Shown piece by piece: positions 11,531 to 55,868 of a stretch of DNA of 64,000 nt. Made by a program: the position numbers and the translations under genes. Source of the stretch: Daejeonella sp. (lineage in GTDB: Bacteria; Bacteroidota; Bacteroidia; Sphingobacteriales; Sphingobacteriaceae); contig NZ_DASWXT010000068.1 in NCBI RefSeq assembly GCF_036405355.1, positions 15,303-79,302 of the forward strand, read 5' to 3'. The notes under the pieces were generated by a model that was given only the letters and a program-made list of their open reading frames with translations, ran no database searches and was not told the DNA's origin. Each line of letters begins with the position of its first letter. The first letter of the stretch is position 1.

Positions 11531-11544
11531 CGTGTACGTAACCG
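11531..11544. promoter_or_regulatory. Operator copy 1 (putative LacI site)
   Basis: CGTGTACGTAACCG, upstream of DegT-1. Confidence 0.8.
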
Positions 11545-11575
11545 AATTTATTTACAAATTAGACAATAAAACAAA
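11543..11575 (-). promoter_or_regulatory. Candidate Bacteroidetes sigma70 promoter of DegT-1 operon
   Basis: Minus-strand -33 TTTG (11572-75), 21-bp spacer, -7 TAAATTCG (11543-50) overlapping the operator. Confidence 0.45.
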
Positions 11576-11587
11576 AAGGATCAGTAC

Positions 11588-12988
11588 TTATTCAGATTTT
11601 CCTGTTAACAGTTTATGTATTGCTTTCATTAAGATTCCTTCTGCCTCGGCAGTTACCCCAGAAGCCTGACCGGTTTCATAACCTCCCTGCGAATAAGCTA
11701 TCGCATTGCCAATATAACCAACAGCATAGTCGCCATATCCGGCAACAGCCACAAACAGATCCGGCCGCTCAGCTTTAGCAGCAAGCTGATACTCCACAAA
11801 AGGCTCACCCGGAAGATGCAGAATTCGTGCATTTCCGATACTTAGCAATGAAATATCAATCTTCTTCCCTGCTTCTAAGCGCTTTAACCAAACCAGCTTG
11901 GATAGATTATTGGATAAAAAAACTGAGGTTTGTGTTTTCATCGCTGCTTCCAGGTTCTCAATACCAGCTGCTGGCTTTAAGGCGACTGATTCAATACTCC
12001 ATTTCACAGAAGCCGGACTTACAGGATCACGTTTGGTATTATCCCAGGCGCGCTTCATCCCGTCTGCCAGTCGCTCAGCAAGGATTAGCCTGTTTTCCTT
12101 AGCACCGTCATTATATTTTCCGGCTGTTAAATTACCTCCGGCTCCATTAAAATGAATGTGCAGAGCATCAGGAACAGCCAGCTGACGCATAAAACGCGCA
12201 ATTCCGGGAAAATCTGGATTTGAAATACCGGTACGGTAATAACTTTGTGGATGAGAGGCATAATAACTAAGTACTGCTAATGGTTTGTCGTTATTCCAAA
12301 AACTGATCAGAGATACCATCGGATCAATTAGTCCTTCGGGAGCAGCACGAATAACAGAATCTTTTGTTGCTGAGGTGCGGGTATACTTAACTTTTCCATC
12401 AGGACCAAGAATCCGGCGGTTTGAAGCCACTTTATAAACCTCAGCCTGCCCGGTTCCGATATGAGTAAAAGGAACAGCGGTAACAATTGATTTACGAATA
12501 GCCTGACCCAGACGCTGGATCAGATCCCTTGCATAGCTACCTTCGAATGCCATCGTACTTAATCCGGCTGTTTTTAGCATATTCTCAGCACCAAAATCAG
12601 AGGTCGGCGCATCATGCTGGTGAATAGCATGTACTACCACTCTCGAAGGAATTGTACCCGCAGCTTCAGCCATAATGCGTTTAAATTCATCCTGACTATC
12701 ATTGGCAATACCAATCCAATCTACTGAGCACATTACAATCGGTTCACCTGCACCTAAGATCACAATACCTTTTGCCCTTAAACCCAGATCCCAGCTATTG
12801 ATCATCGGATCATAAGTTAAACTGCTGCCAACAGGTGGAGTTGCATCTACATCAAATGTTGCCAGTTTCAATTGACTCTGAACAGTATTTGGATAGAAAT
12901 CTGCTGCGAGAGCAGAAAAGGTACTATTCAATAAAAGTATATTGAAACAAAGAAGAAAAGTGTAAATGGACCTAAAGATAATTCTCAT
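11588..12988 (-). CDS. Secreted neutral-ceramidase-like (Zn amidase fold) protein
   Basis: Signal peptide; ATFDVDATP, AIHQHDAP, YASHPQ, LHLPGEPFVEYQ, YGDY..GYI...GGYE. Confidence 0.65.
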   Translation of the reverse strand: MRIIFRSIYTFLLCFNILLLNSTFSALAADFYPNTVQSQLKLATFDVDATPPVGSSLTYDPMINSWDLGLRAKGIVILGAGEPIVMCSVDWIGIANDSQDEFKRIMAEAAGTIPSRVVVHAIHQHDAPTSDFGAENMLKTAGLSTMAFEGSYARDLIQRLGQAIRKSIVTAVPFTHIGTGQAEVYKVASNRRILGPDGKVKYTRTSATKDSVIRAAPEGLIDPMVSLISFWNNDKPLAVLSYYASHPQSYYRTGISNPDFPGIARFMRQLAVPDALHIHFNGAGGNLTAGKYNDGAKENRLILAERLADGMKRAWDNTKRDPVSPASVKWSIESVALKPAAGIENLEAAMKTQTSVFLSNNLSKLVWLKRLEAGKKIDISLLSIGNARILHLPGEPFVEYQLAAKAERPDLFVAVAGYGDYAVGYIGNAIAYSQGGYETGQASGVTAEAEGILMKAIHKLLTGKSE

Positions 12989-13130
12989 AGTTTAATCTGT
13001 TTTTTGCATCAATTTTCCTGTTTATTAAAAAATCGATATGGCTATTGAATGATGAATATGCTGCAATTCGTGTTCTTCACTTGCCCTTCTACTCTGCCGC
13101 TGGTTTATTACTTATAGAGCTCAAAGAATT

Positions 13131-14192
13131 TTAATTTCTATAGAATGCACTATTCTCTTTCGTCAGAATATCAATAGGCATAAAATAAATCTTCTCTACG
13201 GGAGAAGAGAAAGCAAGGTGCTGATAGAGTGATATAAGTCCCCTGTAGCCCTGCTGCTTCGGTTTCTGACAAACTAAAAAGTCGATGATTCCTTTATCCA
13301 TGTACTCAATATTCTCCTTCAAAAAATCATATCCAATCAGAATCACATCCTTTTTTGAACTATCAATAAAATGAGCAACTTTAGAGACTCTGGAATTAGT
13401 TACAAAAACGATCCTGATATCATTATGTTCAGTAAAAATATTGCTCAAATACTTTTCAATTGATTTAAGATCGGTATCTCTTATATCAATTTTCAAAATA
13501 TTATCTGGCTTTTTATGCTTGTCAAAATAAGCCCTGAATCCTTCTTCCTTTTTTAAAAGATGATGATGATTATCGATCTCCCTAGAAATATTTACTATGA
13601 GTATTTTTTCACCGTTTTTAATCAGATAACTCACCAGGTGGGCAGCAAGATAGCCGCTGTGATACAGATTTGGACCGATATAACTCAGGCTACCTCCATT
13701 GGGAAGATCTGAATCAATCAGAACATAGGGAATATTTAATTGCCTGCATTTATCTGTAAACCTGACGGACTCTTCAATAAAAGAAGGTGCAAGTAAAATA
13801 CCATCGGGGTTACTTTCAAGAATAATCTTTGTTTGTTCAACAAAAGATTCAATCTTATTCTGATCGTAGAAATATTTATCAATGATAATTCCAAACTGCT
13901 TGATTTCTTTATCAGCCTGCTCTATTCCTTTCAATGGGGCATCCCAAAAACTGGTTTCCTTTGAAATCTCGGGTATCAGGGTAGCTAAACGAAGGATTTT
14001 TCTGGAGGCAAGCCTTTGCGCAAGCAGGTTAGGCTCATAATTTAATTCCTCAATTATGCCGAGAATCTTTTCCTTGGTTTGTTTGGATACCCCTTTTCTG
14101 TTATGAAGTACACGATCGACAGTAGCAATTGAAACATTAGCCCTTCTGGCAATTTCTTTTACTCCCGTAAGTTCATTAACTCGCTTTTTCAT
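13131..14192 (-). CDS. LacI-family transcriptional regulator
   Basis: HTH VKEIARRANVSIATVDRVLHNR, LNYEPN..A hinge, sugar-binding domain; start taken at MKKRV. Confidence 0.93.
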   Translation of the reverse strand: MKKRVNELTGVKEIARRANVSIATVDRVLHNRKGVSKQTKEKILGIIEELNYEPNLLAQRLASRKILRLATLIPEISKETSFWDAPLKGIEQADKEIKQFGIIIDKYFYDQNKIESFVEQTKIILESNPDGILLAPSFIEESVRFTDKCRQLNIPYVLIDSDLPNGGSLSYIGPNLYHSGYLAAHLVSYLIKNGEKILIVNISREIDNHHHLLKKEEGFRAYFDKHKKPDNILKIDIRDTDLKSIEKYLSNIFTEHNDIRIVFVTNSRVSKVAHFIDSSKKDVILIGYDFLKENIEYMDKGIIDFLVCQKPKQQGYRGLISLYQHLAFSSPVEKIYFMPIDILTKENSAFYRN

Positions 14193-14298
14193 AACAAATT
14201 TCAAAAATGTTTTTTAGTGTATCACTTACACAATAATAACTTTTATCCCCGGCTTTTCAAATCAAATTATTGGAAACATTTCATTTTATTAATATATT

Positions 14299-14312
14299 CG
14301 TTAACGTACCCG
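14299..14312. promoter_or_regulatory. Operator copy 2
   Basis: CGTTAACGTACCCG in the divergent gap between lacI and the 14369 gene. Confidence 0.75.
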
Positions 14313-14368: not shown

Positions 14369-15931
14369 ATGAAAAACATATTGCTTATTTCCCTGGGGTT
14401 AACTATACCATTTGGAGTTTCCGGTGATAAGGTAAATTCAGAAATTAAAATGCACCCGGGTTTCAAGGCAGATTCGATAGAAATATCAAGAGCCAGGGCA
14501 GATATGCTGATCTCTAAACTTCCTAAAGCAGATCCATGGGATGCCAGACCGGATGGAAGTGCTTTGGCCTGGGGTGAAGCAGCTACACTTGAAACGCTCG
14601 TAGATATGTATGAAGCCACAGATGATCCTGCTTATCTGAAAGAAGCTGCACGCCGGGGCGACCGTATGCTGACACATCGTGATGATATTCGGGGTGTAAA
14701 TGATGGTTCCGGAAAAAGCCGGCCTGCATGGAGCATGGGGTTAAAATATGTTGTTGCAAAAGGAGCATTGCTGGATGCCACAGGAAAAATTGCGATCAGT
14801 ATACGCTCCACCCCTTCCTCAAACAATAATCTGACTATTATCGAGCTTATTCCTGACTCAAAATCAAATAGTTTCGGCTTAAAATTAAGCAACAGTTTTT
14901 TTAAGCGGACTGAAATATTTTCGAATCTGAGTATAAATCCTAATGATGAAAGATTCATTGAAAAAATAGTTAATGATCCATTTTCACCGTATTCGACACG
15001 TGCGGGAGATTTTTCTGATACTAAATCAAACCTGATCAGAGTTAAAGTCACTGGATCGACTGTACCTATTGCACAAAGTATAAGCTTAGAGCCTATAACA
15101 CTAGCCTATTCAGGCTACCTGGGTATAATTTATCACCCACTGCTCAGATTGGCCGAACTCGCAAGACAGAAAAGCGAATTAACTGAGCTGCGGCCCGCTG
15201 CTGAACGTTTTATAAAGGCGGCTGAAGAATCTTATCTTGATGCATCATCCCGCTTATGGCGAAATGGCCCAAATCAGGGTGAGGGTTATTATTTAACCTG
15301 TGAAAGAGGAGAATCATTTCCGGCTGACAATGTAGGACAACCTATCAATTTCCTGGGTATGCATACCAGCTCTCAACTTGCATTATATCGTTTAACCGGT
15401 AAAAAGGAATATCTTGAACGTTCTGAAAAGATGGCAAGACTACTGAAAAATCGTTTGCAGTATAATCAGGATTCAGATCTCTATGTATGGACCTACTGGT
15501 ATGAACCTATGACTACCATTGGATGGAAACCTGAAGATATGCTTTCTTCAAATGTTATGATCTATAAAGGTTCGCCAAATGTTGAGGACAGCTCACATGG
15601 AGTACTTGATATTGCTATGGTAACTGCTGCCAACCGTTCCGGAATAGTCTTTACAAAAGAGGATGTCATGAGATTTTCAAATACCCTGTTAAAAAATGTG
15701 ATCCTTCCCGACAGAAGCGGGATTCGAAGGGCAGTTGATGGCAAGGGTGGCGATCATGCAGCATACTTCCCTATTCTACATGGATGGCTGGAATTGGCGG
15801 CGTATAATCCGGAAGTATACCAGGAAATTCGCAGGACGTATTTGAACAGGTCTGAAGAAAATCTTGCCTTTACAGCCGAATTATTAAGATGGGAACGCAA
15901 AATGAAAGCAATTTCATCAGCTTCTAAATAA
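14369..15931 (+). CDS. Hypothetical (alpha/alpha)-toroid protein with inserted beta-domain
   Basis: Helical repeats LAWGEA...MYEATDDPAYL, LYRLTGKKEYL, VWTYW, EDSSHG. Start moved to ATG 14369 because the ORF-track start would place operator 2 inside the CDS. Confidence 0.65.
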   Translation: MKNILLISLGLTIPFGVSGDKVNSEIKMHPGFKADSIEISRARADMLISKLPKADPWDARPDGSALAWGEAATLETLVDMYEATDDPAYLKEAARRGDRMLTHRDDIRGVNDGSGKSRPAWSMGLKYVVAKGALLDATGKIAISIRSTPSSNNNLTIIELIPDSKSNSFGLKLSNSFFKRTEIFSNLSINPNDERFIEKIVNDPFSPYSTRAGDFSDTKSNLIRVKVTGSTVPIAQSISLEPITLAYSGYLGIIYHPLLRLAELARQKSELTELRPAAERFIKAAEESYLDASSRLWRNGPNQGEGYYLTCERGESFPADNVGQPINFLGMHTSSQLALYRLTGKKEYLERSEKMARLLKNRLQYNQDSDLYVWTYWYEPMTTIGWKPEDMLSSNVMIYKGSPNVEDSSHGVLDIAMVTAANRSGIVFTKEDVMRFSNTLLKNVILPDRSGIRRAVDGKGGDHAAYFPILHGWLELAAYNPEVYQEIRRTYLNRSEENLAFTAELLRWERKMKAISSASK

Positions 15932-15988
15932 CTCATGAATAGCTTTTAATTCAGAAAATTATTAATTTATATTTTATCATTGATAATT

Positions 15989-16897
15989 ATGGCTGCAAAA
16001 GATACATCAAGACGCGATTTTATTAAAAAAAGCTCACTGGGAGGACTGGGAACTGCATTGGGAATTGGAACAGTGATCCCTGCAATTGCAGAAGAGGGTC
16101 TGAATACATCTGAACATTCAATCAGTGATGAAAAGCTTCATGTTAAACCCAGATTTCATAACTGGATTGTGGATGAAGGTGAAGAATGGCTTGAGCTTAA
16201 TACCAAACAGGCAAACCTCGACTGGAATATTCCGGTTTCTCAATGTGCACTCGTTTTACTTGATGTATGGCAGCGACACTATCTGAAGGAACCCGAAGAA
16301 AGGGCAGAAAAGATTATCAATGAAAAATATATTCCTTTATTAAAAAGTTGCAGAGAATACGGAATGGAAGTAATCCATTGTCCATCGCCACAAGTCGCAA
16401 AAACACATCCAAACTGGGTCAAACTGATGACGGAAGCCGAACTAAAACCAGTTCCGGATAGCTGGCCACCTAAAGAATTTCGCAATTTAAGTGGCCCATA
16501 TAATGCTTACAGGCGTCCATTTACACCAAAAGAAGCAGAACGTAATGCACTCACACCACTGACCTTTCACCCCAGGGTTGTTCCGCTGAATAATGAGGCA
16601 GTTATTGCATACGGAGAGGAATTGCACCGCTATTGTAAACAAAAAGGTATACTGTTCCTGTTCTTTGCCGGTTTTAATACAAATGCTTGTCTTATCACCA
16701 GAGATTATGGTGTACTGCAAATGAATTATAGGGGATATCAGGTAAGTGTAATCCGTGATTGTACCACCGGAATGGAATCCAGAGAAACTCAGGCTGGTTT
16801 GTTACAAACCAATGGAGCCCTGCTTTTTTTTGAAATGTACGGTCAATACACAGTTACTTCAAACGAAATAATCACTGGATTTTCGAGAAAAGCTTAA
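15989..16897 (+). CDS. Tat-exported isochorismatase-family cysteine hydrolase
   Basis: TSRRDFIK Tat motif; ALVLLDVW, FAGFNTNAC, VIRDCT. Confidence 0.82.
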   Translation: MAAKDTSRRDFIKKSSLGGLGTALGIGTVIPAIAEEGLNTSEHSISDEKLHVKPRFHNWIVDEGEEWLELNTKQANLDWNIPVSQCALVLLDVWQRHYLKEPEERAEKIINEKYIPLLKSCREYGMEVIHCPSPQVAKTHPNWVKLMTEAELKPVPDSWPPKEFRNLSGPYNAYRRPFTPKEAERNALTPLTFHPRVVPLNNEAVIAYGEELHRYCKQKGILFLFFAGFNTNACLITRDYGVLQMNYRGYQVSVIRDCTTGMESRETQAGLLQTNGALLFFEMYGQYTVTSNEIITGFSRKA

Positions 16898-17014: not shown

Positions 17015-18019
17015 CTACTTCCAGTCCACCGGAAGTTTCAATGACCAAACATCATTAACTAATGGAGGTGTCATCCCTCCTGCTATCCATATTTTATCCT
17101 GAAAGATAAAGGCTGATTGTTCATGACGGCCTTTCCATACTTTTTCTGATTTAAACTCTTCCCAGGTAATTCCATCCTTGCTGCTCCAAACATCTGAATG
17201 ATTTTTATATGGATTATTTGACCATCCGGCCATCACCCATATCCGGTCACGATAGACGACTGATGAAAACCATAAGCGTTCATGCCAGGGAGCAGCACTG
17301 GTCAGTTTTGTCCAGTGAATACCATCTTCAGAGCTCCAGACATCATTTTTGGCATGATATTCAGGAACATAGTTTCCGCCTCCAAAAACGTAAATTTTAC
17401 CATTCAAAACGGCAGCCTGATGATATGCCCTGGGTGACCAGCCTGCATCTGCTGTAGCCAGTTTCCAGTCTCTTCCATTTGAAGAATACCATACATCATT
17501 TTTGAGACTGGTTTGATCCCCAAAATAATAGTTCTCAGTACCTCCAAGCAACCATAGTTTCCCCTTAAATTCTACTAAAGCAGAGGCTATTCTCGGTGAC
17601 CATGCTGCCTTATTTGTTTCAAGCTTCCAGTCAATCCCATTTTTTGAAGTCCATACCTTATTACTTGCTGAATGGCCCTTCAGACGTCCATTGTACCAGC
17701 CTCCCATCATAAACATTTTATTTTTGAATGTAATAGACATCGAGAGGTCGCTGTGTATCCATGGTGCTGAATTCGTATGATTTTTCCAGCTTTTACCATC
17801 AGAGGAACTCCAGACATCACGTGGTGGTGCTTCTTGCGAATTGAACCAGCCTCCAAATATCCATAGTTTGTTTTTGTATACCAGTTCTCCCTGTGAATCT
17901 CTGGCCTGCCATGCGGCATTTGGAGTTTCAAGAACCCAGTCCCCAATCCTTTCCTGCGCATGCACAAAGGGACATATATGAATAGAGGTTAAGAATAGTA
18001 ACAGATAAATAACTCTCAT
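17015..18019 (-). CDS. Secreted Kelch-repeat beta-propeller
   Basis: Six repeats of W..R..H...VF.GK.W..GG...NDVW.S.DG..W; signal peptide. Confidence 0.85.
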   Translation of the reverse strand: MRVIYLLLFLTSIHICPFVHAQERIGDWVLETPNAAWQARDSQGELVYKNKLWIFGGWFNSQEAPPRDVWSSSDGKSWKNHTNSAPWIHSDLSMSITFKNKMFMMGGWYNGRLKGHSASNKVWTSKNGIDWKLETNKAAWSPRIASALVEFKGKLWLLGGTENYYFGDQTSLKNDVWYSSNGRDWKLATADAGWSPRAYHQAAVLNGKIYVFGGGNYVPEYHAKNDVWSSEDGIHWTKLTSAAPWHERLWFSSVVYRDRIWVMAGWSNNPYKNHSDVWSSKDGITWEEFKSEKVWKGRHEQSAFIFQDKIWIAGGMTPPLVNDVWSLKLPVDWK

Positions 18020-18094
18020 AACATTGTGATTTTTAAAGAGCATTTTATATAAATAAATTATTTAAGTAATTAGTTATAATTATTTAATAAACAA

Positions 18095-18901
18095 TTATAT
18101 AGATAATATTTTTTTAGCATTTCCAGATCTCAGCATTTCCATAATTGTATCGTCAGCTTCACCCGGACTTAATGATTCTATTCGCAGCAATCCGGTAAGA
18201 TAATCCAGAATCGGGGAATGGGTACCAAATGCAAATTTATTGGATCCATAGTTTTTCAAAAAATCAGACATATTAGTTATGGTCCTTCCCGAAGTATCAA
18301 ATATTAAATCCGTATTCTTAATGAGTGCCAACTCCTCAGCATTAAGTGTTGCTGCATTGGCAAAGTTCAGAATCATATATTTCGCATCCGGAACGGCTTT
18401 TATTATTGGTAGAATATTTTTGAGATTCCATTCCCTGATCACATTATTCTTAAGATTTGAGATGTCAATCCAGGAACGCTGACGGCTATCGACCATCCTG
18501 AAATTAAAAGCAACAGGTAAACCAAAATCACGAACCCGTTTTACCAGCTCAATACATGCAGGATCAAGGATTTCAAAATCATGGTATTTAGGATAAATTC
18601 GGACTCCTTTAAACCCATATTTGCTGATACAAACATCCAGATCATCACGCCAGCCCGCATAAATGGGGTTGATAACTGCAAAGGGAATAAAACGATCCCG
18701 GAATTTTACTTTTGATCTGATCTCTTCGAATAATTCTTCGTTCGCCGACTGGGTATTTTTATAAAAAATCCCATTCAGATTACTGATTACAGAAATATCC
18801 ACACCAAATTTATTCATTCGTTCGTGCAGGGCATCACAGGTATTATACTTGAGCTGCATAAATGGCCAGTGACCAACGTATGCATTAATATCAATCAACA
18901 T
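18095..18901 (-). CDS. Amidohydrolase_2-like protein with degenerate metal site, no signal peptide
   Basis: IDINAYVGH in place of DxHxH; FKGVRIYP.YH; FAFGTHSP. Confidence 0.75.
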   Translation of the reverse strand: MLIDINAYVGHWPFMQLKYNTCDALHERMNKFGVDISVISNLNGIFYKNTQSANEELFEEIRSKVKFRDRFIPFAVINPIYAGWRDDLDVCISKYGFKGVRIYPKYHDFEILDPACIELVKRVRDFGLPVAFNFRMVDSRQRSWIDISNLKNNVIREWNLKNILPIIKAVPDAKYMILNFANAATLNAEELALIKNTDLIFDTSGRTITNMSDFLKNYGSNKFAFGTHSPILDYLTGLLRIESLSPGEADDTIMEMLRSGNAKKILSI

Positions 18902-19894: not shown

Positions 19895-19908
19895 CGTTTA
19901 CGTACACG
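19895..19908. promoter_or_regulatory. Operator copy 3
   Basis: CGTTTACGTACACG in the divergent gap amidohydrolase/murQ. Confidence 0.8.
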
Positions 19909-45679: not shown

Positions 45680-45735
45680 GTAAATTTTTAGCATAGTTTA
45701 TAATTAATAGTAAATAAATAGGCAGGTGAGCAATA

Positions 45736-45973: not shown

Positions 45974-46032
45974 AATATATAAATAATTGTAAAAATTAAA
46001 AATTTATTTAGCTCAATTTGCAGAAATTAAAC

Positions 46033-47385: not shown

Positions 47386-47448
47386 GCAATATTATTTTGT
47401 ATCAAAATATTCCCAACAAGACCATTGGCCTATATGCTTTTTAATTTT

Positions 47449-48837
47449 TTATTTTTCCAATGATTTTTTTACTGATTCTGCACTAGCCTGTATCTTGCTG
47501 ATTGCATTAGCAATTGAATCCATGTCTTCCCTGCTGCCAAGAAGAAGGTTCTGAGTAAACCATACCATTTCTGTACATAAAAGATCATTCTCAGGGCACT
47601 GATTTCGCTCCATATATTTATCATAATCGAGCATATCCTTATGGTACATCCTTTTAAAATTCTTTGATGCGAAAGCTTCTTTAAGAAATTCCTGCTTGTT
47701 CAAAGGAGTATAACCACCAGAACAAGGCACTCCTTCTGCACGCAAAGCCTGTAAAAATGAATTTCTGGATAAACCTTTAAAGTCCTCTTTCTTATATCTG
47801 AATGAAAACAAATGGAATGAAACCCGGGTTGCACAATCATATAATTTATAAGGAACAATCCCGGGAATATCCTTAATCTTTGACTTCAAATACTTCGCAT
47901 TCTCTTCACGTACAGTCGTTTGTGCATCAAGTCTTTGCAGCTGAGCTAAACCAATAGCAGCCTGATATTCAGTAATACGAACCTTGGTGCCAATCCTTAT
48001 GCTCCCTGCATTAAAAGTTCCTACCGCAGTACCAAAGGGTAAGCCAAGATTCTGAAAAGAAACACAGCGGTCCATAAAGGCTCCGTCATTACTAATAATT
48101 GCACCACCTTCACCAATTGGAATATTTTTTGAGTTTTGAAAACTAAAACAACCCGCATTGCCGATTGTTCCAACTTTTTGGTTATTGACCTCAGTTAATG
48201 GAGCCTGGCAGGCATCTTCAACCACAAACAGATTGTGCTTTTTTGCAATTTCCATTATTCTTGGCATATCTGCTGGCATTCCTAAAATATGGACCGGCAA
48301 AATTGCTTTTGTACGTGGTGTTATCTTTGCTTCTATTTTTGCAGGATCAATCTGATATGTTTCCGGATCAATATCCACAAATACCGGCATAGCTCCATTC
48401 ATAAGAATAGCCTGCACGGTTGATATAAATGTATATGGCGGAACAAGTACTTCATCACCGCCTTTAATATCCAGTTGATTCAACGCCACAATCAAAGCAT
48501 TGGTTCCATTGTTAACAACCAAACAACGCTTAGCACCATTGACATTTGCCCAGGCGGCTTCAAACTCGTTGACTACTCCCGCACGCGACCAAACACCGCT
48601 TCTCAGGACTTCAAGAACGCGCTTTTCATCCGTTTCTGGTACCCAGATAGGCCATTTGATCCATTTGGCTTTATCCCATGCTGAAGGGCCGCCTAAAATC
48701 GCTGGTCTCGCTGCATTGTTTAAATCCCCTGCTAGCAGAGAAGGTGTCATACCCATCGTCAGCACAGCTCCCACTCCAGCCAGAGAGCTCTGCTTTAAAA
48801 ACTTACGTCTCGATGAATCAGTATTCTTATTTTTCAT
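47449..48837 (-). CDS. Second Tat-exported DegT-family PLP aminotransferase
   Basis: SSRRKFLK; NGTNAL, VVEDACQA, CFSFQNSKNIPIGEGG. Confidence 0.9.
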   Translation of the reverse strand: MKNKNTDSSRRKFLKQSSLAGVGAVLTMGMTPSLLAGDLNNAARPAILGGPSAWDKAKWIKWPIWVPETDEKRVLEVLRSGVWSRAGVVNEFEAAWANVNGAKRCLVVNNGTNALIVALNQLDIKGGDEVLVPPYTFISTVQAILMNGAMPVFVDIDPETYQIDPAKIEAKITPRTKAILPVHILGMPADMPRIMEIAKKHNLFVVEDACQAPLTEVNNQKVGTIGNAGCFSFQNSKNIPIGEGGAIISNDGAFMDRCVSFQNLGLPFGTAVGTFNAGSIRIGTKVRITEYQAAIGLAQLQRLDAQTTVREENAKYLKSKIKDIPGIVPYKLYDCATRVSFHLFSFRYKKEDFKGLSRNSFLQALRAEGVPCSGGYTPLNKQEFLKEAFASKNFKRMYHKDMLDYDKYMERNQCPENDLLCTEMVWFTQNLLLGSREDMDSIANAISKIQASAESVKKSLEK

Positions 48838-48986: not shown

Positions 48987-49000
48987 CGTTTACGTACCCG
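48987..49000. promoter_or_regulatory. Operator copy 7
   Basis: CGTTTACGTACCCG upstream of DegT-2. Confidence 0.8.
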
Positions 49001-49079
49001 AATATATAAATTATTTTTATTAAAACAATAGTTCACAGGGAGAATTATCAAGATAAATGTGAGTTAAAATGGAAATTAT

Positions 49080-50282
49080 TTACCTGATCACAACCCCAAT
49101 CATATCAATAGAAATTCCCGCCTCAGCCTTTCCGACATCCTTTACCATAGCTTTCGAGGCGGCTGGCGGACGAAGCGGATCATAATATTTAGGACGAATT
49201 TCATTTAATTTAGCACTATGAGCATCATTGCTAACATAATAGGTTGCTTTTACAAGATGCCTGAAATCACTGCCCGTATTTTTCAATATGGTACCCATTA
49301 GATTGAAGACAGATGCCAATTCAGAATCAGCATTACCGGAAATTTGTCCGTATAATCCTGATATATAAACCTTTTGACCATAGTTAATCCGGGTAACTTT
49401 ACAGTAAACGGGTGAAGCTGTCATTCCGGGAGGAGTAATAAAATCAAGCTGCTGATTTGATTTAGATGCTGTATTGGGAGATGAAGCAATTAATTCTATT
49501 TCAATTACCGGATCTTTACTTGTCCATTCAACATTGACCATGGGTGGTATAGTACCCCCCTTAAAAAATTTGGCAAACTCCTCCTCTACTATTTTAAGGT
49601 CAGACATTGGCCTGACGAAGGATTTAATCTGAACAATATCCTTTTTCTCTAATCCCAATGAAACAAGAGTAGTCTGAAGCTGCTCCAGGGTTCCGCGTGT
49701 TGCTTCTGCAAGTTCACCTTTAACCGCCTGACCTGAAACATAAACAACAGGACCTGCAGGTAAAATTGACGCCCGGGCGACAGCCGGAGCTGAGGATAAA
49801 TTCCCGGGCATAAAATAACTAACACTCTTTGTATTGATTTTAGCTGTAACTGCAATTGCGTCCATTGAAATCAAAGCGTCGGTATGAGAAAGATCCCCGG
49901 CAACAAAACTCAGAGCAGGACACTTCCCTGATTTAAACCGCTTATATATCTGCTCCTGAACTGTAGAGATCAGACTTGAATTCCTGATATAGATATTAAG
50001 TTTAACGATCTGATCTGGTTTTGACCCAGCCTGTTTCAAAGCAGAAATAATATTTAAAAAAACCTGGTTGGTCTGCGCATTGATATCACCAGATCCAACA
50101 ATACTGCCTGATCTATCCACAGGCAGGAATTGTGTGGTATGAACTAGCGGAACATCATCAACAACTACTGCATCCGAAGCTCCCGGAAAATTCGCAGATC
50201 CTGAATATTGAATGTGTTGCCCTTTCTGAGCAAAACCGGAATAACCCAGAAATAAGAAAAAAATGCAGATCAGAGCTTTCAT
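49080..50282 (-). CDS. Secreted protein of three fused RidA/YjgF/L-PSP domains
   Basis: Signal peptide; three repeats (IVKLNIY; VYVSGQ...IVQIKSF...VIEIE; VYISG...LVKATYY). Confidence 0.85.
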   Translation of the reverse strand: MKALICIFFLFLGYSGFAQKGQHIQYSGSANFPGASDAVVVDDVPLVHTTQFLPVDRSGSIVGSGDINAQTNQVFLNIISALKQAGSKPDQIVKLNIYIRNSSLISTVQEQIYKRFKSGKCPALSFVAGDLSHTDALISMDAIAVTAKINTKSVSYFMPGNLSSAPAVARASILPAGPVVYVSGQAVKGELAEATRGTLEQLQTTLVSLGLEKKDIVQIKSFVRPMSDLKIVEEEFAKFFKGGTIPPMVNVEWTSKDPVIEIELIASSPNTASKSNQQLDFITPPGMTASPVYCKVTRINYGQKVYISGLYGQISGNADSELASVFNLMGTILKNTGSDFRHLVKATYYVSNDAHSAKLNEIRPKYYDPLRPPAASKAMVKDVGKAEAGISIDMIGVVIR

Positions 50283-50290
50283 GTTTAGAT

Positions 50291-50311
50291 GTCAGTTGTC
50301 AGTTGTCTGTT
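50291..50311. repeat. Heptamer repeat x3 upstream of RidA start
   Basis: GTCAGTT GTCAGTT GTCTGTT. Confidence 0.7.
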
Positions 50312-50417
50312 GCCAGAAATATCCTGCTATATTTAAAATGAACACGTAACTTCATTATTCTTTATTCATTGTTCCAGGAAATTATTTTCAAGAAGCAGGT
50401 ACTAGTCTTAATGACCA

Positions 50418-50495
50418 TTCCCTATTTCCTATTTCCTATTTCCTATTTCCTATTTCCTATTCCCTATTCCCTATTTCCTATTCCCTATTCCCCTA
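50418..50495 (-). repeat. Heptamer SSR (TAGGRAA) x10 beginning at the HiPIP stop codon
   Basis: Ten TT(T/C)CCTA units at 50418-50487 plus an 8-nt unit containing the TAG stop. Confidence 0.95.
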
Positions 50496-50876
50496 ACTAT
50501 TAACCGGTGCCCAATAAGCACAATATCCCTCAGAGCGAACTGGCCCTTTAAACAACATACAACCACCGCAAGGCTTATCCTTCGCCGGCGGAAGGTAAAG
50601 TGCGCAATTACTGCAATGGCTATCCGGTATTGGTGTTTTGTTTACATATGCAAGCTTTTTACGTTTTGCAACTTCTTCGGCACTTACTCCTGTTAGGTCA
50701 TCGCAAGGATTTTTTTGTGCTGGCTGTGGAGTTTTGGGCTGCTGATTCGAATCCCCTTCTTTAGCCATGCTGCTAACTGAACTGCCGGCAACCAATATTC
50801 CTGTTCCTATTGCAACTGAACCAGCAAGTATATACTTACCAATGAACCTTCTTCTTGAATACTTTTGTTCTTCCAT
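50493..50876 (-). CDS. Tat-exported high-potential iron-sulfur protein (HiPIP)
   Basis: YSRRRFIG; CSNC...C..C.LFKG.V..EGYCAYW. Confidence 0.88.
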   Translation of the reverse strand: MEEQKYSRRRFIGKYILAGSVAIGTGILVAGSSVSSMAKEGDSNQQPKTPQPAQKNPCDDLTGVSAEEVAKRKKLAYVNKTPIPDSHCSNCALYLPPAKDKPCGGCMLFKGPVRSEGYCAYWAPVNS

Positions 50877-50917
50877 CTTTCTATTATTTACCGGTCAATT
50901 TAAAATTCAGTATATCC

Positions 50918-53020
50918 TTAATTTTTTCTAAGCAATTGAAATCCTGCTTTCACTTCCTCCATTGAGCCTGTATTTAATTGTCCTGCAAGCTCTTTTGTAG
51001 ACTCATTTTTATTTAATCCTGCTTTAAGCCCTTTTAAGGCAGCTAGCTGGACATTTGCTCCGGATAATGCTCCGGATGAAAGTGTATTCAAATACGCTGA
51101 ATACTGTTCCTTATTATATCTGGCAGCAATAATATTTGACAAATCCTGAATAAAGCTGAGTTTCCAGCTTTCTTCACTGCTGAAGAATGTATTATCCTTC
51201 ATCAGTGAATTTAAAATTTCAACTGACGAACCTGCTTCAGAGCTTATAACTGCACTCCTGAACCAATCATTCTGTCCGTATTTTCTGATCACCTCAGCTA
51301 AAGCCTCAATCACCTTCTTTCCTTTAAACTGTCCCAGACTAAGTGCAGCTTGCATGGCAACCCGCTTAGATGGGTCATTAACCATTGGAATTAACAGTTT
51401 AACGGTTTTTGGATATCTTTCTGCAAGTATAATGCCATTTTCCCTAACACCAGGCTCAGAATCCAGCAGGGACTTTTTAACGATCTTTTCAGTAAGTGCA
51501 TTCAAACCTTCGAGCACGTAAAGTGCATGTAGTCTTGTTCTTGCATCCTGACTATTAGAAAACAATGAAATCACAGCAGGAATAACAGTTTTATCCTGAC
51601 GTTCAAGCAGCAAACGCTGGGCATTACTGCGATACCAGCCGTTCTTGTGCGACAGATAATCGACCAATTGAAGTCCGGTAGCGTTCTTCAAATCTACTTT
51701 TACTCCCTGGTATGTGCCATTTTCAGGCAGGAGTCGATAAATCCTACCCATATCACTACCCGCCATAAAATCCATTTCAGCTTTAAGATCATCGGGAATT
51801 GAAACCGGTGTTTCGATATGCTGTCTGTAATAATCAAGAATATATAAGTATCCGTCAGGGCCAACAGAGAATGTTACCGGTCGGAACCAGGTGTCAGTGG
51901 AATAAATAAATTCTCTGTTCTTTTCGGATTCGGCACGTTTTGCAACCAGAACCGGACTTGTTTCACTTGGACTTAAAATATCTCTGTGAATCAGACTACC
52001 GGAAACATCCGTTGTAAAAATATTGCCATAAAATTCCTGTGGCAGGGCATCACCATTATAAATAGTACCTCCGGATGCGCCTGTAAAGTGATCTTCTGCC
52101 CATTCTATCCGATTAAGATTCGCTTCTTTGAACATCCTGTTTCTACGGGCACTTCTTTCAGATCTCCAGTAAGCCGGCGGGATTTCCTGAAACATGATCT
52201 CTTCATGATCTGTTATAGTTACATTAAACTTACTGCTTGGCATGAATGCATGTCTGTGAGTATATCTCCAGGGAATTACTGCCTGCTGTAAGTGTATTGA
52301 ATTCTCTGTAAAGAAACGATGTCCCCAGTCGTCAATAGTTTGTCCGAACTGTCCCGGACCAGTCTCAAGTTCAAAAACATCACGGTCCAATCTGAAACGA
52401 AAATCTGCTCCTCTAACCTCAACAGGCGTCGCATCTGGCGATTTACTATAAATCACTTTACCACTCTGACCACGATTATTTGCATAAATCCAGTTATCGA
52501 TCCCCAATTTCAAACTGGTAACCTGAGCCTCAGAGTTATTCTGAAAAAATCCTGAGAACAAAATTTCCCTGATATCTGATTTTCCATCCCCATTGGTATC
52601 CTTCAGATAAAGAATATTGGGAGCGGCAGTCACGATAAGTCCGCCTTTCCATGGCAGCATACTGGTTGCTTCGGTTACATTTTCAGCAAATATGATCGAC
52701 TGATCAATTTTACCATCACCATCAGTATCTTTCAGTATCCGGATACGGCCATGACCCTTACCAGGTTCAACCTCATACGGATAATCAGGCATTTCAATCA
52801 CATAGGCATTTCCCTGTTCGTCAAATTCAAGTGATACCGGGTCAAAAACATGAGGTTCTGATGCAAATAAGGAAACTTTATAGCCTTTAGCCACATTAAG
52901 TTTCTTCATTGACTCCTCCGGACTTAATGGCCCGGGATAACGCTGAGCCATGCTGTTTCCTGCTAATAAAATAAATGGTAATAATAATATGGCTGAGCGG
53001 CCACTGAAATTAGTCTTCAT
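50918..53020 (-). CDS. PVC-type membrane-bound dehydrogenase-like protein (propeller + HEAT repeats) lacking the cytochrome c domain
   Basis: LFASEP...DPV...FDE.G, DTDGDGKID, GQFG..IDDWGHRF, WFRPV...GPDG.LYI.D.YR..IE; HEAT repeats; no CxxCH. Confidence 0.85.
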   Translation of the reverse strand: MKTNFSGRSAILLLPFILLAGNSMAQRYPGPLSPEESMKKLNVAKGYKVSLFASEPHVFDPVSLEFDEQGNAYVIEMPDYPYEVEPGKGHGRIRILKDTDGDGKIDQSIIFAENVTEATSMLPWKGGLIVTAAPNILYLKDTNGDGKSDIREILFSGFFQNNSEAQVTSLKLGIDNWIYANNRGQSGKVIYSKSPDATPVEVRGADFRFRLDRDVFELETGPGQFGQTIDDWGHRFFTENSIHLQQAVIPWRYTHRHAFMPSSKFNVTITDHEEIMFQEIPPAYWRSERSARRNRMFKEANLNRIEWAEDHFTGASGGTIYNGDALPQEFYGNIFTTDVSGSLIHRDILSPSETSPVLVAKRAESEKNREFIYSTDTWFRPVTFSVGPDGYLYILDYYRQHIETPVSIPDDLKAEMDFMAGSDMGRIYRLLPENGTYQGVKVDLKNATGLQLVDYLSHKNGWYRSNAQRLLLERQDKTVIPAVISLFSNSQDARTRLHALYVLEGLNALTEKIVKKSLLDSEPGVRENGIILAERYPKTVKLLIPMVNDPSKRVAMQAALSLGQFKGKKVIEALAEVIRKYGQNDWFRSAVISSEAGSSVEILNSLMKDNTFFSSEESWKLSFIQDLSNIIAARYNKEQYSAYLNTLSSGALSGANVQLAALKGLKAGLNKNESTKELAGQLNTGSMEEVKAGFQLLRKN

Positions 53021-53205: not shown

Positions 53206-53219
53206 CGGTAACGTACCCG
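53206..53219. promoter_or_regulatory. Operator copy 8
   Basis: CGGTAACGTACCCG upstream of the dehydrogenase-HiPIP operon. Confidence 0.8.
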
Positions 53220-53326
53220 AAAATTAAATATAAAATCTTAATATCCAAATTTTATTTACTTCTATCACGTAAAAACTATTTGCTTTCTTATAAAAAGAAC
53301 AAGCAGATTCCATTTGACTATAAAAA

Positions 53327-55822
53327 TCATTGAATGGATTTACTGAACACAGTATAACGCACTGGTTGTGAATATTCATTATGAGGAAAGGTATAGAAAC
53401 GGATCTTTCCGTCATTATCCATAGAAAAACCCGGATCATTTTCCAATTGAACAATATTTCCCGAAACATTTCTGGCCGGAAAGTACAAACTGGATCCATC
53501 CGGGAAATCCAGGCGAATATGGGTGACATCAGGTTGAGCAGAATCCAATTCAAGATTATGCTTTCCTCCTGAGTTTTCGGTTCCTTTTAATATGCCCGAC
53601 TTTGCTCTCCCCTTCGCATATTTCCAACCGGCACTCGAAATAAGACTAATTTCATTCCCATTCAGACTAATCCTGTCCTGAATATTTTTACCATTCAATT
53701 CATAATCTATAAGATAGCTATCACCATCTGCACGGACTGATTTTATCCATGGTTTGCCTAGAAAAGGTTCGTGAATGGCAACAAAACTCGATTTGCTACC
53801 GGTATGTCTTTGCATAATTCCAAGGCGCATAAAATTATCAAGTTTATTATCATCCTCAGCGGCGAGTCTGACCGATGGGGCACGAAAACTGAATATCTCA
53901 GCATCTTTTTGGGGTATATGATGAGTGCGCAGCCCAGAATTTTGATAATTCCAGGTTGCTGTCCATGGTTTGCTTGTTATCCCAGCCTTAATATCTTTCA
54001 TATAGGAATAAGCATGGATTTTTTTTCCGATAATATCTGAATCATACTGGTTCATGGGTATAGCAGTCCCTCCCCACTCAGGTACCAGTGTTTTAACAGC
54101 CCGATCCAATGAAATACTGGTTACCAGTTTTCCCTCTTCTTCGCACATGCCATGCAGAAACCAGTCATGTGTCTCCCCTCCTTCCACATCAAAACGGTCA
54201 ATCACATAGTCCTTGCCTTCAGCCGCATGAACAAATATCAGCCTTCTCCTGTATTGGGTGGCCGTAGAATAAGCCGGAGACGCATCAAGATCAATAACCT
54301 TAACCTGAGGATTCTGATCATCATAATACATGAGCCGGCCTGTTACAGGTTTTAATAAAGTTCCCTGGTCCTGGGCTTTCTGATCTATAACAACGGTATT
54401 GTGTGATGCTGTATGTAATGTCCATCCGCGATACTTGGAATGTGTATAACCGATATCTGAAAGCAGCTCAGAACCATTTGCAAACAAGATTATGGAAGCA
54501 TTGTCATAATGCGAATGCCCGTAATTACCACTCCAGTTTACATTGAGCATGGTTTGATCCTTTCCGGTACCGGCAGCTAAAGCTGCATTCCCGAGCGATG
54601 GCCATAGGCGCGAAACAGCAAAACCTTCAGTTTTTACGGGTTTAGCTCTGTTAGCCCAGGTATCATTAAGAGGGAGTTTATGACCATTTGGAAATACTGC
54701 CTGCAGGCTGACATTTAAAGCACTTTTATAAAAAGGCATTGCATTAGTCAGATCAAGATTTTCAAAACGCTCCCCCTTCCAGTCCGCAGGATCTGTATAA
54801 CCCCTGGCTGCTTGAGCAACGCTCTCCAGTCCTCCAATCGTCTGGTCATGATAAGAAACAGTCCCCTCTTTCCACCAGCCATCCGCAAAAAACCCGAGTT
54901 TTAAAAATTCCCTGAAGCGATTCACTCCATCGTGAACAATGTCGGGCCTGTTAAGTATCCGACCCACTCTCACCATATCTCTGTACATACCGGGCGACAT
55001 ATTGGTATAAATTTCAGGGTTAGCCGCGGTAAACTCATAACCCAAAATCAACAGATCTTTTACGATTCTTTGGTCTGTGTCCTTACCTATTTGTGAATCC
55101 ATTCTGTTCCAGTCATAAGCCCCTTTCTGCAAATTTTCATACGCTATGGCAATCTGTACCGGAATATCCCCATAAGCCCACCAGTTCCATTTGGCCCCCC
55201 GGTAAGGAACGAGCCCTTCATAAGGCCATTTCTGATTTGCAGGAAAAAACTTCTTGGGAGCACTTGGATAATCGTATCGTATTGCATAATCAGGGAATAA
55301 CTGTGCAAAACGACCCGCAATCATTGCCGCCCTGTCGCCATAAGCAGGATCTTTTGTCTGGGACCATATCTGAGACAATTGTACCGCCATTTGCTGAATC
55401 CATTTCCAGCGATCAAACCAGGCATGTGCCTCATAGAAATATTGAGTACCCTTGGCGTCCTGAAAATAACGGTAAACCTGTTTTGCGCCACTTGGTGCTA
55501 TGATTACTTTTTCGCCATTATGGGGATATTTTTCATTTGGGAAAGTCATGCTGCAGAACTTACATTTTACCTGATCCCCCATTCCAGGCTCCCAGTTCAA
55601 TATTCCCATCTCCTGGGCGCCTCCCTTACAATTCGGGCAACCGATAAAGAAAATACCTGATCCGGGTGGCACCATATTCTTCACATCAGTCAGAGACATT
55701 TTCATCAAAGGTTCAACTGATGCAATTTGAGCTTCTATATTTTCAGATTTCTGCTGTCCATAAACAAATGCGGGCATAAGAAATGCAAGATATAGGAATG
55801 CTATAAATAATTTATTAATCAT
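53327..55822 (-). CDS. Secreted heparinase II/III-family lyase-like protein with N-terminal CxxC-CxxC module
   Basis: WWKEGTVSYH, GHSHYD...I.LF...ELLSDIGY, W...T.SHNTVVID; CPNC and CKFC. Confidence 0.8.
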   Translation of the reverse strand: MINKLFIAFLYLAFLMPAFVYGQQKSENIEAQIASVEPLMKMSLTDVKNMVPPGSGIFFIGCPNCKGGAQEMGILNWEPGMGDQVKCKFCSMTFPNEKYPHNGEKVIIAPSGAKQVYRYFQDAKGTQYFYEAHAWFDRWKWIQQMAVQLSQIWSQTKDPAYGDRAAMIAGRFAQLFPDYAIRYDYPSAPKKFFPANQKWPYEGLVPYRGAKWNWWAYGDIPVQIAIAYENLQKGAYDWNRMDSQIGKDTDQRIVKDLLILGYEFTAANPEIYTNMSPGMYRDMVRVGRILNRPDIVHDGVNRFREFLKLGFFADGWWKEGTVSYHDQTIGGLESVAQAARGYTDPADWKGERFENLDLTNAMPFYKSALNVSLQAVFPNGHKLPLNDTWANRAKPVKTEGFAVSRLWPSLGNAALAAGTGKDQTMLNVNWSGNYGHSHYDNASIILFANGSELLSDIGYTHSKYRGWTLHTASHNTVVIDQKAQDQGTLLKPVTGRLMYYDDQNPQVKVIDLDASPAYSTATQYRRRLIFVHAAEGKDYVIDRFDVEGGETHDWFLHGMCEEEGKLVTSISLDRAVKTLVPEWGGTAIPMNQYDSDIIGKKIHAYSYMKDIKAGITSKPWTATWNYQNSGLRTHHIPQKDAEIFSFRAPSVRLAAEDDNKLDNFMRLGIMQRHTGSKSSFVAIHEPFLGKPWIKSVRADGDSYLIDYELNGKNIQDRISLNGNEISLISSAGWKYAKGRAKSGILKGTENSGGKHNLELDSAQPDVTHIRLDFPDGSSLYFPARNVSGNIVQLENDPGFSMDNDGKIRFYTFPHNEYSQPVRYTVFSKSIQ

Positions 55823-55854
55823 GATCGGCCATTTATGTTGAGATTGATAAGAAT

Positions 55855-55868
55855 CGTGTACGTACCCG
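55855..55868. promoter_or_regulatory. Operator copy 9
   Basis: CGTGTACGTACCCG upstream of the heparinase-like gene. Confidence 0.8.

Follow-up and report, generated by a model that had tools for sequence, protein, structure and literature searches.

Which of the roughly 35 neighbouring, mostly unannotated genes in a 48-kb locus of Daejeonella sp. belong together, and what would tell us so? The locus occupies positions 7951-55822 of a 64,000-nt segment of contig NZ_DASWXT010000068.1 (positions 15,303 to 79,302, RefSeq assembly GCF_036405355.1; this whole segment is called the window below), and almost every one of its genes lies on the minus strand. A first-pass annotation, made from the letters of the window, had pointed to nine copies of a 14-bp palindrome and had proposed that they are operators of a LacI-type regulator encoded within the locus, tying about eight transcription units to a single inducer. 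I argue here that this proposal is well supported in silico: the nine palindromes are very probably operators by which the locus-encoded LacI represses eight promoter regions, under the control of an inducer. The case is built on the symmetry of the sites, their placement at promoters, their fusion to the -7 box and their conservation together with the LacI orthologue.

The sites stand out sharply from the rest of the window. The pattern CGKKTACGTACMCG, run over the 64 kb with up to two mismatches, matches nine positions (11531, 14299, 19895, 34675, 45736, 45960, 48987, 53206 and 55855), exactly those listed in the first-pass annotation. The number expected by chance is 0.41, the mean of 100 shuffles, of which the most productive gave four matches and none reached nine. 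With three mismatches allowed, the window yields scattered extra matches only and no additional full-motif site. When the nine sites are made into a strand-symmetrised, palindromic weight matrix, they score between 23.2 and 28.5 bits, and the runner-up in the 64 kb, in coding DNA at 4432, scores 13.1 bits; the set of sites is cleanly bimodal and separate from the background. Annotated genes cover 89.3% of the window (whose G+C content is about 39%), yet all nine sites are intergenic (P = 1.8e-9) and each precedes the head of an operon, as had been claimed. Nor does the matrix find any site in the Mla/Lol flank, in the flank that carries the genes for fasciclin, an extracytoplasmic function (ECF) sigma factor and copA, or in about 18 kb past the ends of the window, which agrees with the earlier remark that none was noticed near mla, fasciclin or copA.

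The consensus, CGKKTAC-GTAMMCG (the hyphen marks the centre), is an even palindrome of 14 bp, and a central CG is present in all nine sites of the window. Both half-sites are equally conserved, with C1 and G2 at one end and C13 and G14 at the other found in 17-18 of 18 strand-symmetrised half-sites, and the bases flanking the core show an AT bias and no symmetry. Motifs of the LacI family are likewise even palindromes, usually of 16-22 nt, 1173 of 1303 of them with a central CG (PMC4052901), so the assignment of the palindrome to this operator type holds. The hexamer TACGTA occurs in 11 copies in the window, as compared to about 21 expected from base composition; seven of the 11 are intergenic, and all seven fall within seven of the nine sites. 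Outside the sites the word is neither enriched nor avoided. I also considered whether the sites might belong to a larger repeat or mobile element and rejected the idea: the DNA they share consists of the operator and an AT-rich promoter, 29-48 nt at 72-86% identity.

What the sites do is suggested by where they lie with respect to promoters. In the direction of the downstream gene, TA(A/T)ATT or something close to it stands immediately before seven of the nine (Table 1). Joined to the first CG of the operator this makes TAnnTTCG, a 5/6 match to the Bacteroidota sigma-A -7 box, TAnnTTTG, which lies at -12 to -5 with respect to the start site (PMC9723704). Because the box overlaps or abuts the beginning of the operator, the operator itself would span about -6 to +8, and a protein bound at the predicted start site would be in the classical position for steric repression. 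In other genomes nearly every orthologous site shows this fusion again, in the same register and ahead of the same downstream gene. Distances to the start codon (Table 1) fall inside the range of 30-140 nt at five of the nine sites; in the LacI family more than 75% of sites lie 30-140 bp from a start codon and less than 1% are coding (PMC4052901). The leaders are atypical at several sites, being 149-265 nt long, with one of 9 nt. Scans for sigma-70 promoters and intrinsic terminators around the sites gave counts at the level of shuffled sequence, and the boundaries of the transcription units are for that reason predicted ones. Searches of sequencing runs for transcription starts yielded DNA metagenomes plus a single RNA run with 5% of the words in it, from which starts are not mappable.

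The sole transcription factor encoded inside the locus is the product of lacI. It combines a LacI helix-turn-helix (HTH) domain (PF00356, E 3e-17, residues 16-59) with a periplasmic-binding-protein-like sensor domain (Peripla_BP_4, PF13407, E 2e-37), and its recognition helix is SIATVDRVLHNR and its hinge NLLAQRL. Among solved structures 3gbv comes closest (E 3e-49, residues 61-352); it comprises the effector domain only and is the best solved relative of the sensor domain, and its depositors' name, "putative LacI-family", assigns no function and offers no hint of an inducer. The CcpA structures 1rzr, 1zvv and 3oqm were also matched. There is no C-terminal tetramerisation helix, and DNA looping in the style of E. 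coli LacI is therefore not expected. The TVDRV helix to which the first-pass annotation appealed is indeed present in SIATVDRVLHNR, but it is common to the whole Bacteroidota LacI subfamily and so does not single out this regulator, and for the same reason cross-talk with paralogues is possible.

A further part of the early proposal, that site 2 lies next to the divergent promoter of lacI itself, survives as a statement of position but not of regulation. The site is in the gap between lacI and unk520, and the -7 box fused to it faces unk520 and the isochorismatase-like gene that follows. The arrangement is the same in all orthologous loci, with a distance to lacI that ranges from 107 to 337 bp. 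In genomes where unk520 is not beside lacI, either there is no site in that position (D. lutea, L029, and Daejeonella JGW-45, L033; loci from other genomes and contigs are given L numbers here) or the site stands at the promoter of the isochorismatase-like gene (L030). Since the box faces unk520, the distance to lacI varies, and genomes lacking unk520 at this place lack the site, autoregulation of lacI is not supported; site 2 appears to belong to the divergent unk520 operon and not visibly to lacI.

If the palindromes are operators, they should be kept where the regulator is kept, and relatives allow this to be examined at several depths. The window comes from an uncultured, Daejeonella-like bacterium of the Sphingobacteriaceae that occurs in soil and freshwater. 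A soil-metagenome contig in ENA is 99.75% identical to the window DNA over 13 kb, DNA identity to "Sphingobacteriales bacterium 16-39-50" is about 90%, and named Daejeonella species have LacI orthologues at 75-85% identity. Scanning with the LacI protein, one genome per species, gave 79 loci with up to 10 kb on either side. Within the Daejeonella clade (LacI 73-99% identical) each well-covered locus has 2-5 sites. The non-redundant sites number 52 over 19 genome loci with LacI orthologues, and all of them lie outside genes, upstream of orthologous operon heads. Sites also follow promoters through rearrangement. GFO_1, an oxidoreductase gene, is internal to the DegT_1 operon in the window and has no operator of its own, and in D. 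rubra, D. lutea and others, where it comes directly after lacI, an operator precedes it. In D. lutea the cupredoxin-DUF7133 genes are placed opposite the SIS gene, and an operator lies between the two. L034 provides a natural experiment: DegT_1 is deleted there, and the operator that belonged to it has decayed, the central CG with it. When upstream regions from genomes at 63-89% protein identity are aligned with MAFFT, the -7 box with the operator is the only conserved island.

Site by site, operator 1 is kept upstream of DegT_1 in L011-L018, L023, L029, L031, L033, L053 and L061, and operator 3 in the equivalent divergent gap elsewhere, including the gaps rearranged to SIS/cupredoxin in L029-L031. 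A second scan, of metagenomes and anchored on DegT_2, found operators 5-9 conserved in metagenome relatives at 84-96% identity (L091-L096). Operator 5 is kept as an identical variant sequence in L091, L092, L094 and L095, and operator 6 is present in L091, L092 and L094 and missing from L095. Operator 7 is kept in L091-L093, L095 and L096, and operators 8 and 9 are each kept in L092, L093 and L170. With all comparisons pooled, the sites fall into 81 distinct contexts and 23 distinct 14-mers, whose consensus is CGKKTACGTAMMCG.

The pair of operators ahead of SusC invited the thought of a DNA loop between operators 5 and 6. Their start-to-start spacing is variable, however (224, 234 and 117 bp in close relatives), and the second site may be absent altogether, which makes a fixed loop unlikely, and I rejected the idea; the protein is also without the tetramerisation tail.

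Beyond the clade, the question becomes whether the motif travels with the regulator or with the genes. Background was sampled, at a cutoff of 17 bits or more, from about 1.6 Mb of fetched Bacteroidota loci and the ~18 kb of extra flank. In 0.89 Mb of other Bacteroidota loci there are four matches, three of which lie within 120 bp upstream of a LacI homologue of 36-41% identity; the sites beside distant homologues read CGTGTACGAACACG in Draconibacterium and CGTTAACGTACACG in Balneolaceae, and weaker palindromes of the same type flank further LacI homologues. In 0.72 Mb of DegT-anchored loci from distant organisms there are two matches, one of them at the SusC promoter of L113, a locus from a more distant organism with two sites 31 bp apart at that promoter of the orthologous operon. 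The metagenome contig L114 encodes a LacI of 55% identity with TACTTTTG-GGGTACGTGAACG directly downstream, ahead of a gene whose product has a twin-arginine (Tat) signal. All these homologues have in common the recognition helix S[ITV][AG]TVDRV[LI]HNR. Taken together, the comparisons appear to support well a link of the motif to LacI rather than to the target genes.

Pedobacter gives a different picture. Its LacI homologues of about 60% identity (L036:1798, L041:1795 and L047:7554) stand in an unrelated locus, with a conserved, half-similar site, CGTGTACGATAACT, about 90-130 bp upstream of a gene for a protein of 639-732 aa. I considered them as orthologues and set them aside, the locus being different and only the half-like CGTGTACGATAACT being conserved. 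L041 has two such paralogues 8 kb apart, the second with CGTTCACGTGCACG beside it. These sites suggest a family of related operators used by paralogous regulators.

The mechanism that I propose is as follows. The nine palindromes would be operators of a dimeric LacI/GalR-family repressor encoded at 13131-14192, and a dimer on each 14-bp operator would occlude the -7 box and the start site and so block RNA polymerase. Without inducer, the eight promoter regions would be shut and some 30 genes off. Substrate that is imported would be converted, by enzymes present at basal levels, to a pathway intermediate, which would bind the periplasmic-binding-protein-like domain of LacI and cause its release from all operators at once, switching the locus on. 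The sites with their statistics and placement, the fusion to the -7 box, the conservation across genomes and the link to LacI orthologues are observed. Four elements of the scheme are inferred: that this LacI and not a paralogue is the binder, that it represses rather than activates, where the transcription units begin and end, and that there is an inducer and of what nature. Within those terms, the proposal that the palindromes are operators tying about eight transcription units together stands up to the comparisons made above.

Several observations weigh against it. The conserved core of 14 bp is shorter than the 16-22 nt usual for the family, and lacI has no conserved operator of its own, as opposed to the 72% of LacI-family regulators that are autoregulated (PMC4052901). 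The recognition helix is common to paralogues, so that another member of the subfamily could bind the sites or engage in cross-talk. Operators 3 and 5 are without a good fused -7 box (operator 5 has a weak one, and the promoter served by operator 3 is uncertain); here the protein may act as a roadblock, the site may lie between the -33 and -7 elements, or there may be a weak second promoter. Some close relatives (L015, L016, L020 and L034) keep lacI while their operators are missing or mutated at the centre. Rhabdobacter roseus has a LacI of 72% identity beside orthologous genes and no site within 10 kb on either side, a case that is uninformative, because the promoters of its single long operon lie beyond the range covered. 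Finally, the background frequency of the motif is that of the ~1.6 Mb of fetched loci and the extra flank.

In two of the relatives just named, L020 and L034, both metagenome-assembled genomes of Daejeonella from lakes, the genes for DegT_1, unk520, the isochorismatase-like protein, Amidohyd_a/Amidohyd_b and the Kelch protein are missing, and the operators have gone or decayed, with lacI still 89-93% identical. The reduction looks like erosion of pathway and regulon in streamlined freshwater lineages.

How else might the sites be explained? They could be real operators bound by a regulator encoded elsewhere, either a paralogue from the LacI subfamily or an unrelated dimeric factor, with the embedded LacI serving different or overlapping targets. 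The near invariance of the ...TVDRV.HNR helix in homologues down to 35% identity makes this conceivable, as do the Pedobacter paralogues, about 60% identical, which sit in unrelated loci beside the half-similar CGTGTACGATAACT (two of them in L041), and the relatives that have kept lacI and lost operators. I consider it unlikely nonetheless: the motif tracks the LacI orthologue through rearrangements and adjoins lacI in every well-covered locus of the Daejeonella clade, distant homologues each have a related palindrome beside their own gene, and the locus encodes no second regulator. A few LacI-family proteins, CcpA and FruR among them, activate from upstream positions, and the LacI of this locus might bind the same sites and activate, or act in a mixed fashion. 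One could cite operators 3 and 5, which are not clearly fused to a -7 box, and operator 6, 265 nt from SusC. That reading is very unlikely in view of the seven operators in nine that overlap or abut a -7 box and predicted start, the classical repressor position, and of the fact that the great majority of local LacI-family regulators are repressors (PMC4052901).

The two accounts that dispense with LacI fare worse. The motif might be a promoter element for an alternative sigma factor, such as the ECF sigma encoded at 56712-57263 beside the locus; here, as in L092, L093 and L170, a sigma/anti-sigma pair lies next to the locus, a CGT-containing -10 motif is known in flavobacteria (PMC9723704), and ECF -10 regions often contain CGT. 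Symmetric half-sites fit a dimer, however, rather than an asymmetric -35/-10 promoter, a box of the sigma-A type (TAnnTT) is fused to the sites, and the motif occurs beside LacI homologues in loci with no ECF sigma gene noted nearby, all of which leaves only a slim chance for this account. That the palindrome is not regulatory at all, being instead a target of restriction-modification or a methylase, a mobile or REP-like (repetitive extragenic palindromic) repeat, or a terminator hairpin, I regard as barely credible. It does contain TACGTA and GTAC, palindromic words of the restriction type, and five sites, besides being upstream of the next gene, lie just past a stop codon. Against this, the motif is 14 bp long and confined to intergenic promoters, TACGTA shows no enrichment or avoidance elsewhere, the sites are not embedded in a longer repeat, and their position follows promoters after rearrangement. 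A terminator would also be an odd one, with no loop, a short stem only and no T-tract after it, and the terminator scans gave results at the level of chance.

Repression by the LacI of the locus can be compared with systems already described. The LacI-family regulators of Bacteroides KdgR (BT0487), UxaR (BT0824), UxuR (BT1434) and UxmR (BT3613) have predicted regulons in uronate catabolism (PMC3878776). Like the system here, they join a LacI HTH to a periplasmic-binding-protein-like sensor, have CG-centred operators upstream of catabolic operons and a regulator gene embedded among its targets, and were recognised by the same kind of comparative genomics; the likeness is one of type and not of established orthology. 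Those regulons control uronate, and the locus here has genes of a uronate flavour (lyase-like, CE15-like, enolase-superfamily and DHDPS-like). The Bacteroides targets form a cytoplasmic monosaccharide pathway, whereas here there is a SusC/SusD locus of mostly uncharacterised exported enzymes, with no conserved autoregulatory site. The scale also differs. Of LacI-family regulators, about 31% control one operon and 38% two, 69% in all (PMC4052901), as compared to about eight operons and 30 genes here, on a 14-bp core. With some 30 genes and eight promoter regions the regulon would have the size called global (more than 15 genes in at least seven operons), a term that also calls for several pathways (Ravcheev 2014). 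Within the window, though, the targets form a single contiguous locus, and its core genes are found together elsewhere as well, which argues for one pathway and so for a very large local regulon.

AusR of Zobellia galactanivorans, a repressor of the GntR/FadR family that governs an alginate utilisation system, offers a parallel from another protein family, with binding and effectors shown by experiment (PMC7641319). It too is a repressor inside a Bacteroidota polysaccharide utilisation locus, with one operator on several promoters, many overlapping the TAnnTTTG -7 box, and the model proposed for it resembles the one proposed here, basal enzymes yielding an oligomer or intermediate that releases the repressor. 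It differs in its operators, which are TKGTN2-3ACMA pairs rather than a single CG-centred 14-mer, and in having an operator on its own promoter.

In E. coli LacI and PurR and in Bacillus CcpA, the HTH lies in the major groove and a leucine of the hinge helix is inserted at the central CG step. The LacI of the locus has the same fold and keeps the NLLAQRL hinge. Its similarity to these proteins is only at the level of 15-20 bits per domain, with E about 1e-15.

Table 1. Operators, regulator gene and putative transcription units of the locus. Positions are those of the window; distances run from the operator to the start codon; units called putative were delimited from gene content and junctions.
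Feature	Positions	Strand	Sequence or content	Distance, or basis of the call	-7-like box
Operator 1	11531-11544	-	CGGTTACGTACACG (minus strand)	102 nt ahead of DegT_1	TAAATTCG, 11543-11550, minus strand, overlapping operator bases 1-2
Operator 2	14299-14312	+	CGTTAACGTACCCG	56 nt to unk520; 106 nt to divergent lacI	TATATTCG, 14293-14300, plus strand
Operator 3	19895-19908		CGTTTACGTACACG	divergent gap: 50 nt to Amidohyd_a, 206 nt to MurQ-like SIS gene	
Operator 4	34675-34688	-	CGTGTACGTAAACG (minus strand)	9 nt ahead of 3-keto-disaccharide-hydrolase-like gene	TATATTTA, 34689-34696, minus strand, abutting
Operator 5	45736-45749	-	CGGGTACGCACCCG (minus strand)	41 nt ahead of SusC	TACATACG, weak, same register
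Operator 6	45960-45973	-	AGTGTACGTAACCG (minus strand)	265 nt ahead of SusC	TATATTAG, 45972-45979, minus strand
Operator 7	48987-49000	-	CGGGTACGTAAACG (minus strand)	149 nt ahead of DegT_2	TATATTCG, 48999-49006, minus strand
Operator 8	53206-53219	-	CGGGTACGTTACCG (minus strand)	185 nt ahead of DUF7133/HEAT (PVC-type haem-binding) gene	TAATTTTC, 53219-53226, minus strand, overlapping operator base 1
Operator 9	55855-55868	-	CGGGTACGTACACG (minus strand)	32 nt ahead of heparinase II/III-like gene	TATATTCG, 55867-55874, minus strand
lacI	13131-14192	-	LacI/GalR-family regulator, 353 aa	Pfam, helix, hinge, structure match	
Putative operon behind operator 1	7951-11428	-	DegT_1 (Tat-signal aminotransferase), GFO_1 (Tat-signal oxidoreductase), YdjM	Pfam, Tat motifs, short or overlapping junctions	
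unk466	11588-12988	-	466 aa, directly downstream of lacI	no Pfam match	
Putative operon behind operator 2	14369-16897	+	unk520, isochorismatase-like hydrolase (Tat signal)		
Putative operon behind operator 3	17015-19844	-	two Amidohydro_2 proteins, Kelch-repeat protein		
SIS gene	20115-20933	+	MurQ-family SIS etherase-like	NCBIfam NF003915, 320 bits, above cutoff	
Putative nine-gene operon behind operator 4	20965-34665	-	3-keto-disaccharide-hydrolase-like, GFO/Oxidoreduct_C, epimerase, DHDPS-like, enolase-superfamily, cupredoxin/DUF6797, DUF7133, M14 peptidase, 1277-aa FG-GAP protein	Pfam, gap lengths	
Putative seven-gene operon behind operators 5 and 6	34819-45694	-	SusC, SusD, DUF5017, two CE15-like alpha/beta hydrolases, Amidohydro_2, ceramidase-like protein	Pfam, gaps	
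Putative operon behind operator 7	46033-48837	-	DegT_2 (Tat-signal aminotransferase), unk450		
Putative operon behind operator 8	49080-53020	-	DUF7133/HEAT PVC-type haem protein, HiPIP, triple-RidA protein		
Single gene behind operator 9	53327-55822	-	heparinase II/III-like protein	Pfam Hepar_II_III_C	

The units behind the operators are listed in Table 1. Two long gaps within them are without an operator: one of 172 bp (32379-32552) inside the run behind operator 4, and one of 210 bp (50282-50493) inside the operon behind operator 8, which holds an array of heptamers. The SIS gene, divergent from operator 3, is possibly co-regulated; in L029-L031 the operator is only about 40 nt from it. Directly downstream of lacI, unk466 has no operator in this genome (the gap at 12989-13130 is without a matrix match), and in other genomes it is found inside the operator-controlled GFO_1 operon. 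Its product is a distant paralogue of the neutral-ceramidase-like protein at 34819-36192 (20% identity over 382 aligned positions, E 7e-8), so that the locus has two proteins of this kind, one of them recognised by pairwise comparison alone. Both of these amidase-like proteins recur beside DegT genes in distant metagenome loci. The product of unk450, for its part, is no paralogue of unk466.

The adjacent uptake pair that characterises a Bacteroidota polysaccharide utilisation locus is present and consists of a SusC-like protein of 1058 aa (Plug and CarboxypepD_reg domains) and a SusD-like protein of 634 aa (SusD_RagB and SusD-like_3), and the DUF5017 protein is a lipoprotein. Families represented more than once include four Amidohydro_2 proteins (Amidohyd_a, Amidohyd_b and Amidohyd_c are names used here), two DegT aminotransferases and Gfo/Idh/MocA oxidoreductases, beside the isochorismatase-like protein. 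Eight proteins, both aminotransferases included, have Tat signals, and most others have Sec signals; the triple-RidA protein is a secreted one. Among the ~35 proteins of the locus there is no glycoside hydrolase family; the sole carbohydrate-related matches are the heparinase II/III-like protein, with a weak Hepar_II_III_C/PL17 resemblance (that is, to PL17 alginate lyases), the two CE15-like hydrolases and the 3-keto-disaccharide-hydrolase-like protein. The MurQ-like etherase and the PVC-type haem protein are the only two that NCBIfam names. Neither unk450 nor the 1277-aa FG-GAP protein had a match in PDB sequence searches, and an AlphaFold model of unk450 made from the single sequence, with a predicted local distance difference test (pLDDT) score of 41, is too poor for a structure search.

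Some features of the DNA in and near these units deserve mention in their own right. The two CE15-like hydrolases are encoded by tandem paralogues (37253-39545), with a 300-nt stretch at 67% DNA identity and an offset of 1135 nt. The 71-bp gap between DegT_1 and GFO_1 contains a perfect 17-nt tandem duplication, GAATCTATATTAAGCTT x2.1, at 10007-10041, and this gap appears to be where GFO_1 was relocated relative to other Daejeonella genomes. At three places (50417-50489, 34800-34832 and 58083-58133) a tandem array of heptamers, read on the strand that codes for the gene upstream, starts at the stop codon of that gene or shortly beyond it: (AGGAAAT)x10 begins 4 nt past the stop of the HiPIP gene, AGGGAAT-like repeats overlap the stop of the ceramidase-like gene, and (AGGTATT)x7 begins 10 nt past the stop of the anti-sigma gene.

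To the left the locus is flanked by genes for Lol/Mla transport, and to the right by those for fasciclin, the ECF sigma/anti-sigma pair, AraC, tRNA-His, copA and RNase H. The tRNA-His gene (60809-60883, minus strand) is preceded by two degenerate direct-repeat pairs of 79 and 57 nt, 72-75% identical (60530-60883). One repeat copy in this gap between AraC and copA overlaps the 3' part of tRNA-His, and its partner lies 174 nt upstream; the repeats may include decayed copies of the tRNA.

What would such a regulon be for? The enzymes that DegT_2 resembles most are the glutamine:scyllo-inosose and 2-deoxy-scyllo-inosose aminotransferases, whose substrates are free and not bound to a nucleotide, and GFO_1 bears a weak resemblance to inositol 2-dehydrogenase. 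Genes for DegT, the ceramidase-like protein and unk450 recur together in 12-14 of about 17 distant metagenome loci (DegT at least ~55% identical), and unk466 does so in fewer. Since these core genes co-occur independently of the motif, a single functional module is supported. A literature search for this set of genes, or for DegT aminotransferases of the periplasm in loci of this type, turned up nothing relevant. An aminotransferase in the periplasm raises the question of where its amino-acceptor co-substrate comes from.

A reasonable guess, though only a guess, is that the substrate is an amino- and/or uronate-containing glycoconjugate, or a compound of the aminocyclitol type, processed in the periplasm. 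Going further is more doubtful, and I offer only as a tentative possibility that the operators delimit a hitherto undescribed, Bacteroidota-wide catabolic system, fed by SusC/SusD, largely periplasmic and without a glycoside hydrolase, that dismantles such a compound by oxidation, transamination and cleavage of amides and esters, one intermediate being the inducer of LacI. On the same tentative reading its parts would be Tat-exported pyridoxal phosphate-dependent aminotransferases of the scyllo-inosose type, Gfo/Idh/MocA oxidoreductases, the two neutral-ceramidase-like amidases, a secreted triple-RidA deaminase, and a redox chain of HiPIP, cupredoxin and PVC-type haem proteins.

The regulatory device is ordinary, a LacI-type repressor with a CG-centred palindrome on the promoter, and it is the content of the regulon that is more unusual. 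The device is also a clear case of fusion between operator and -7 box from the Sphingobacteriia, a group in which the control of nutrient-uptake loci at their promoters has been little studied. A route to the substrate follows, in that purified LacI, or a reporter on any of the operators, could be used to screen for the inducer, and the cultured relatives Daejeonella rubra DSM 24536, D. lutea DSM 22385 and Daejeonella sp. H1SJ63 share the regulator and the operators. As the regulon of a local LacI protein it would be unusually large, tying some 30 mostly uncharacterised genes into one system, and the operators would define, by sequence, which of the ~35 neighbouring and mostly unannotated genes belong together.

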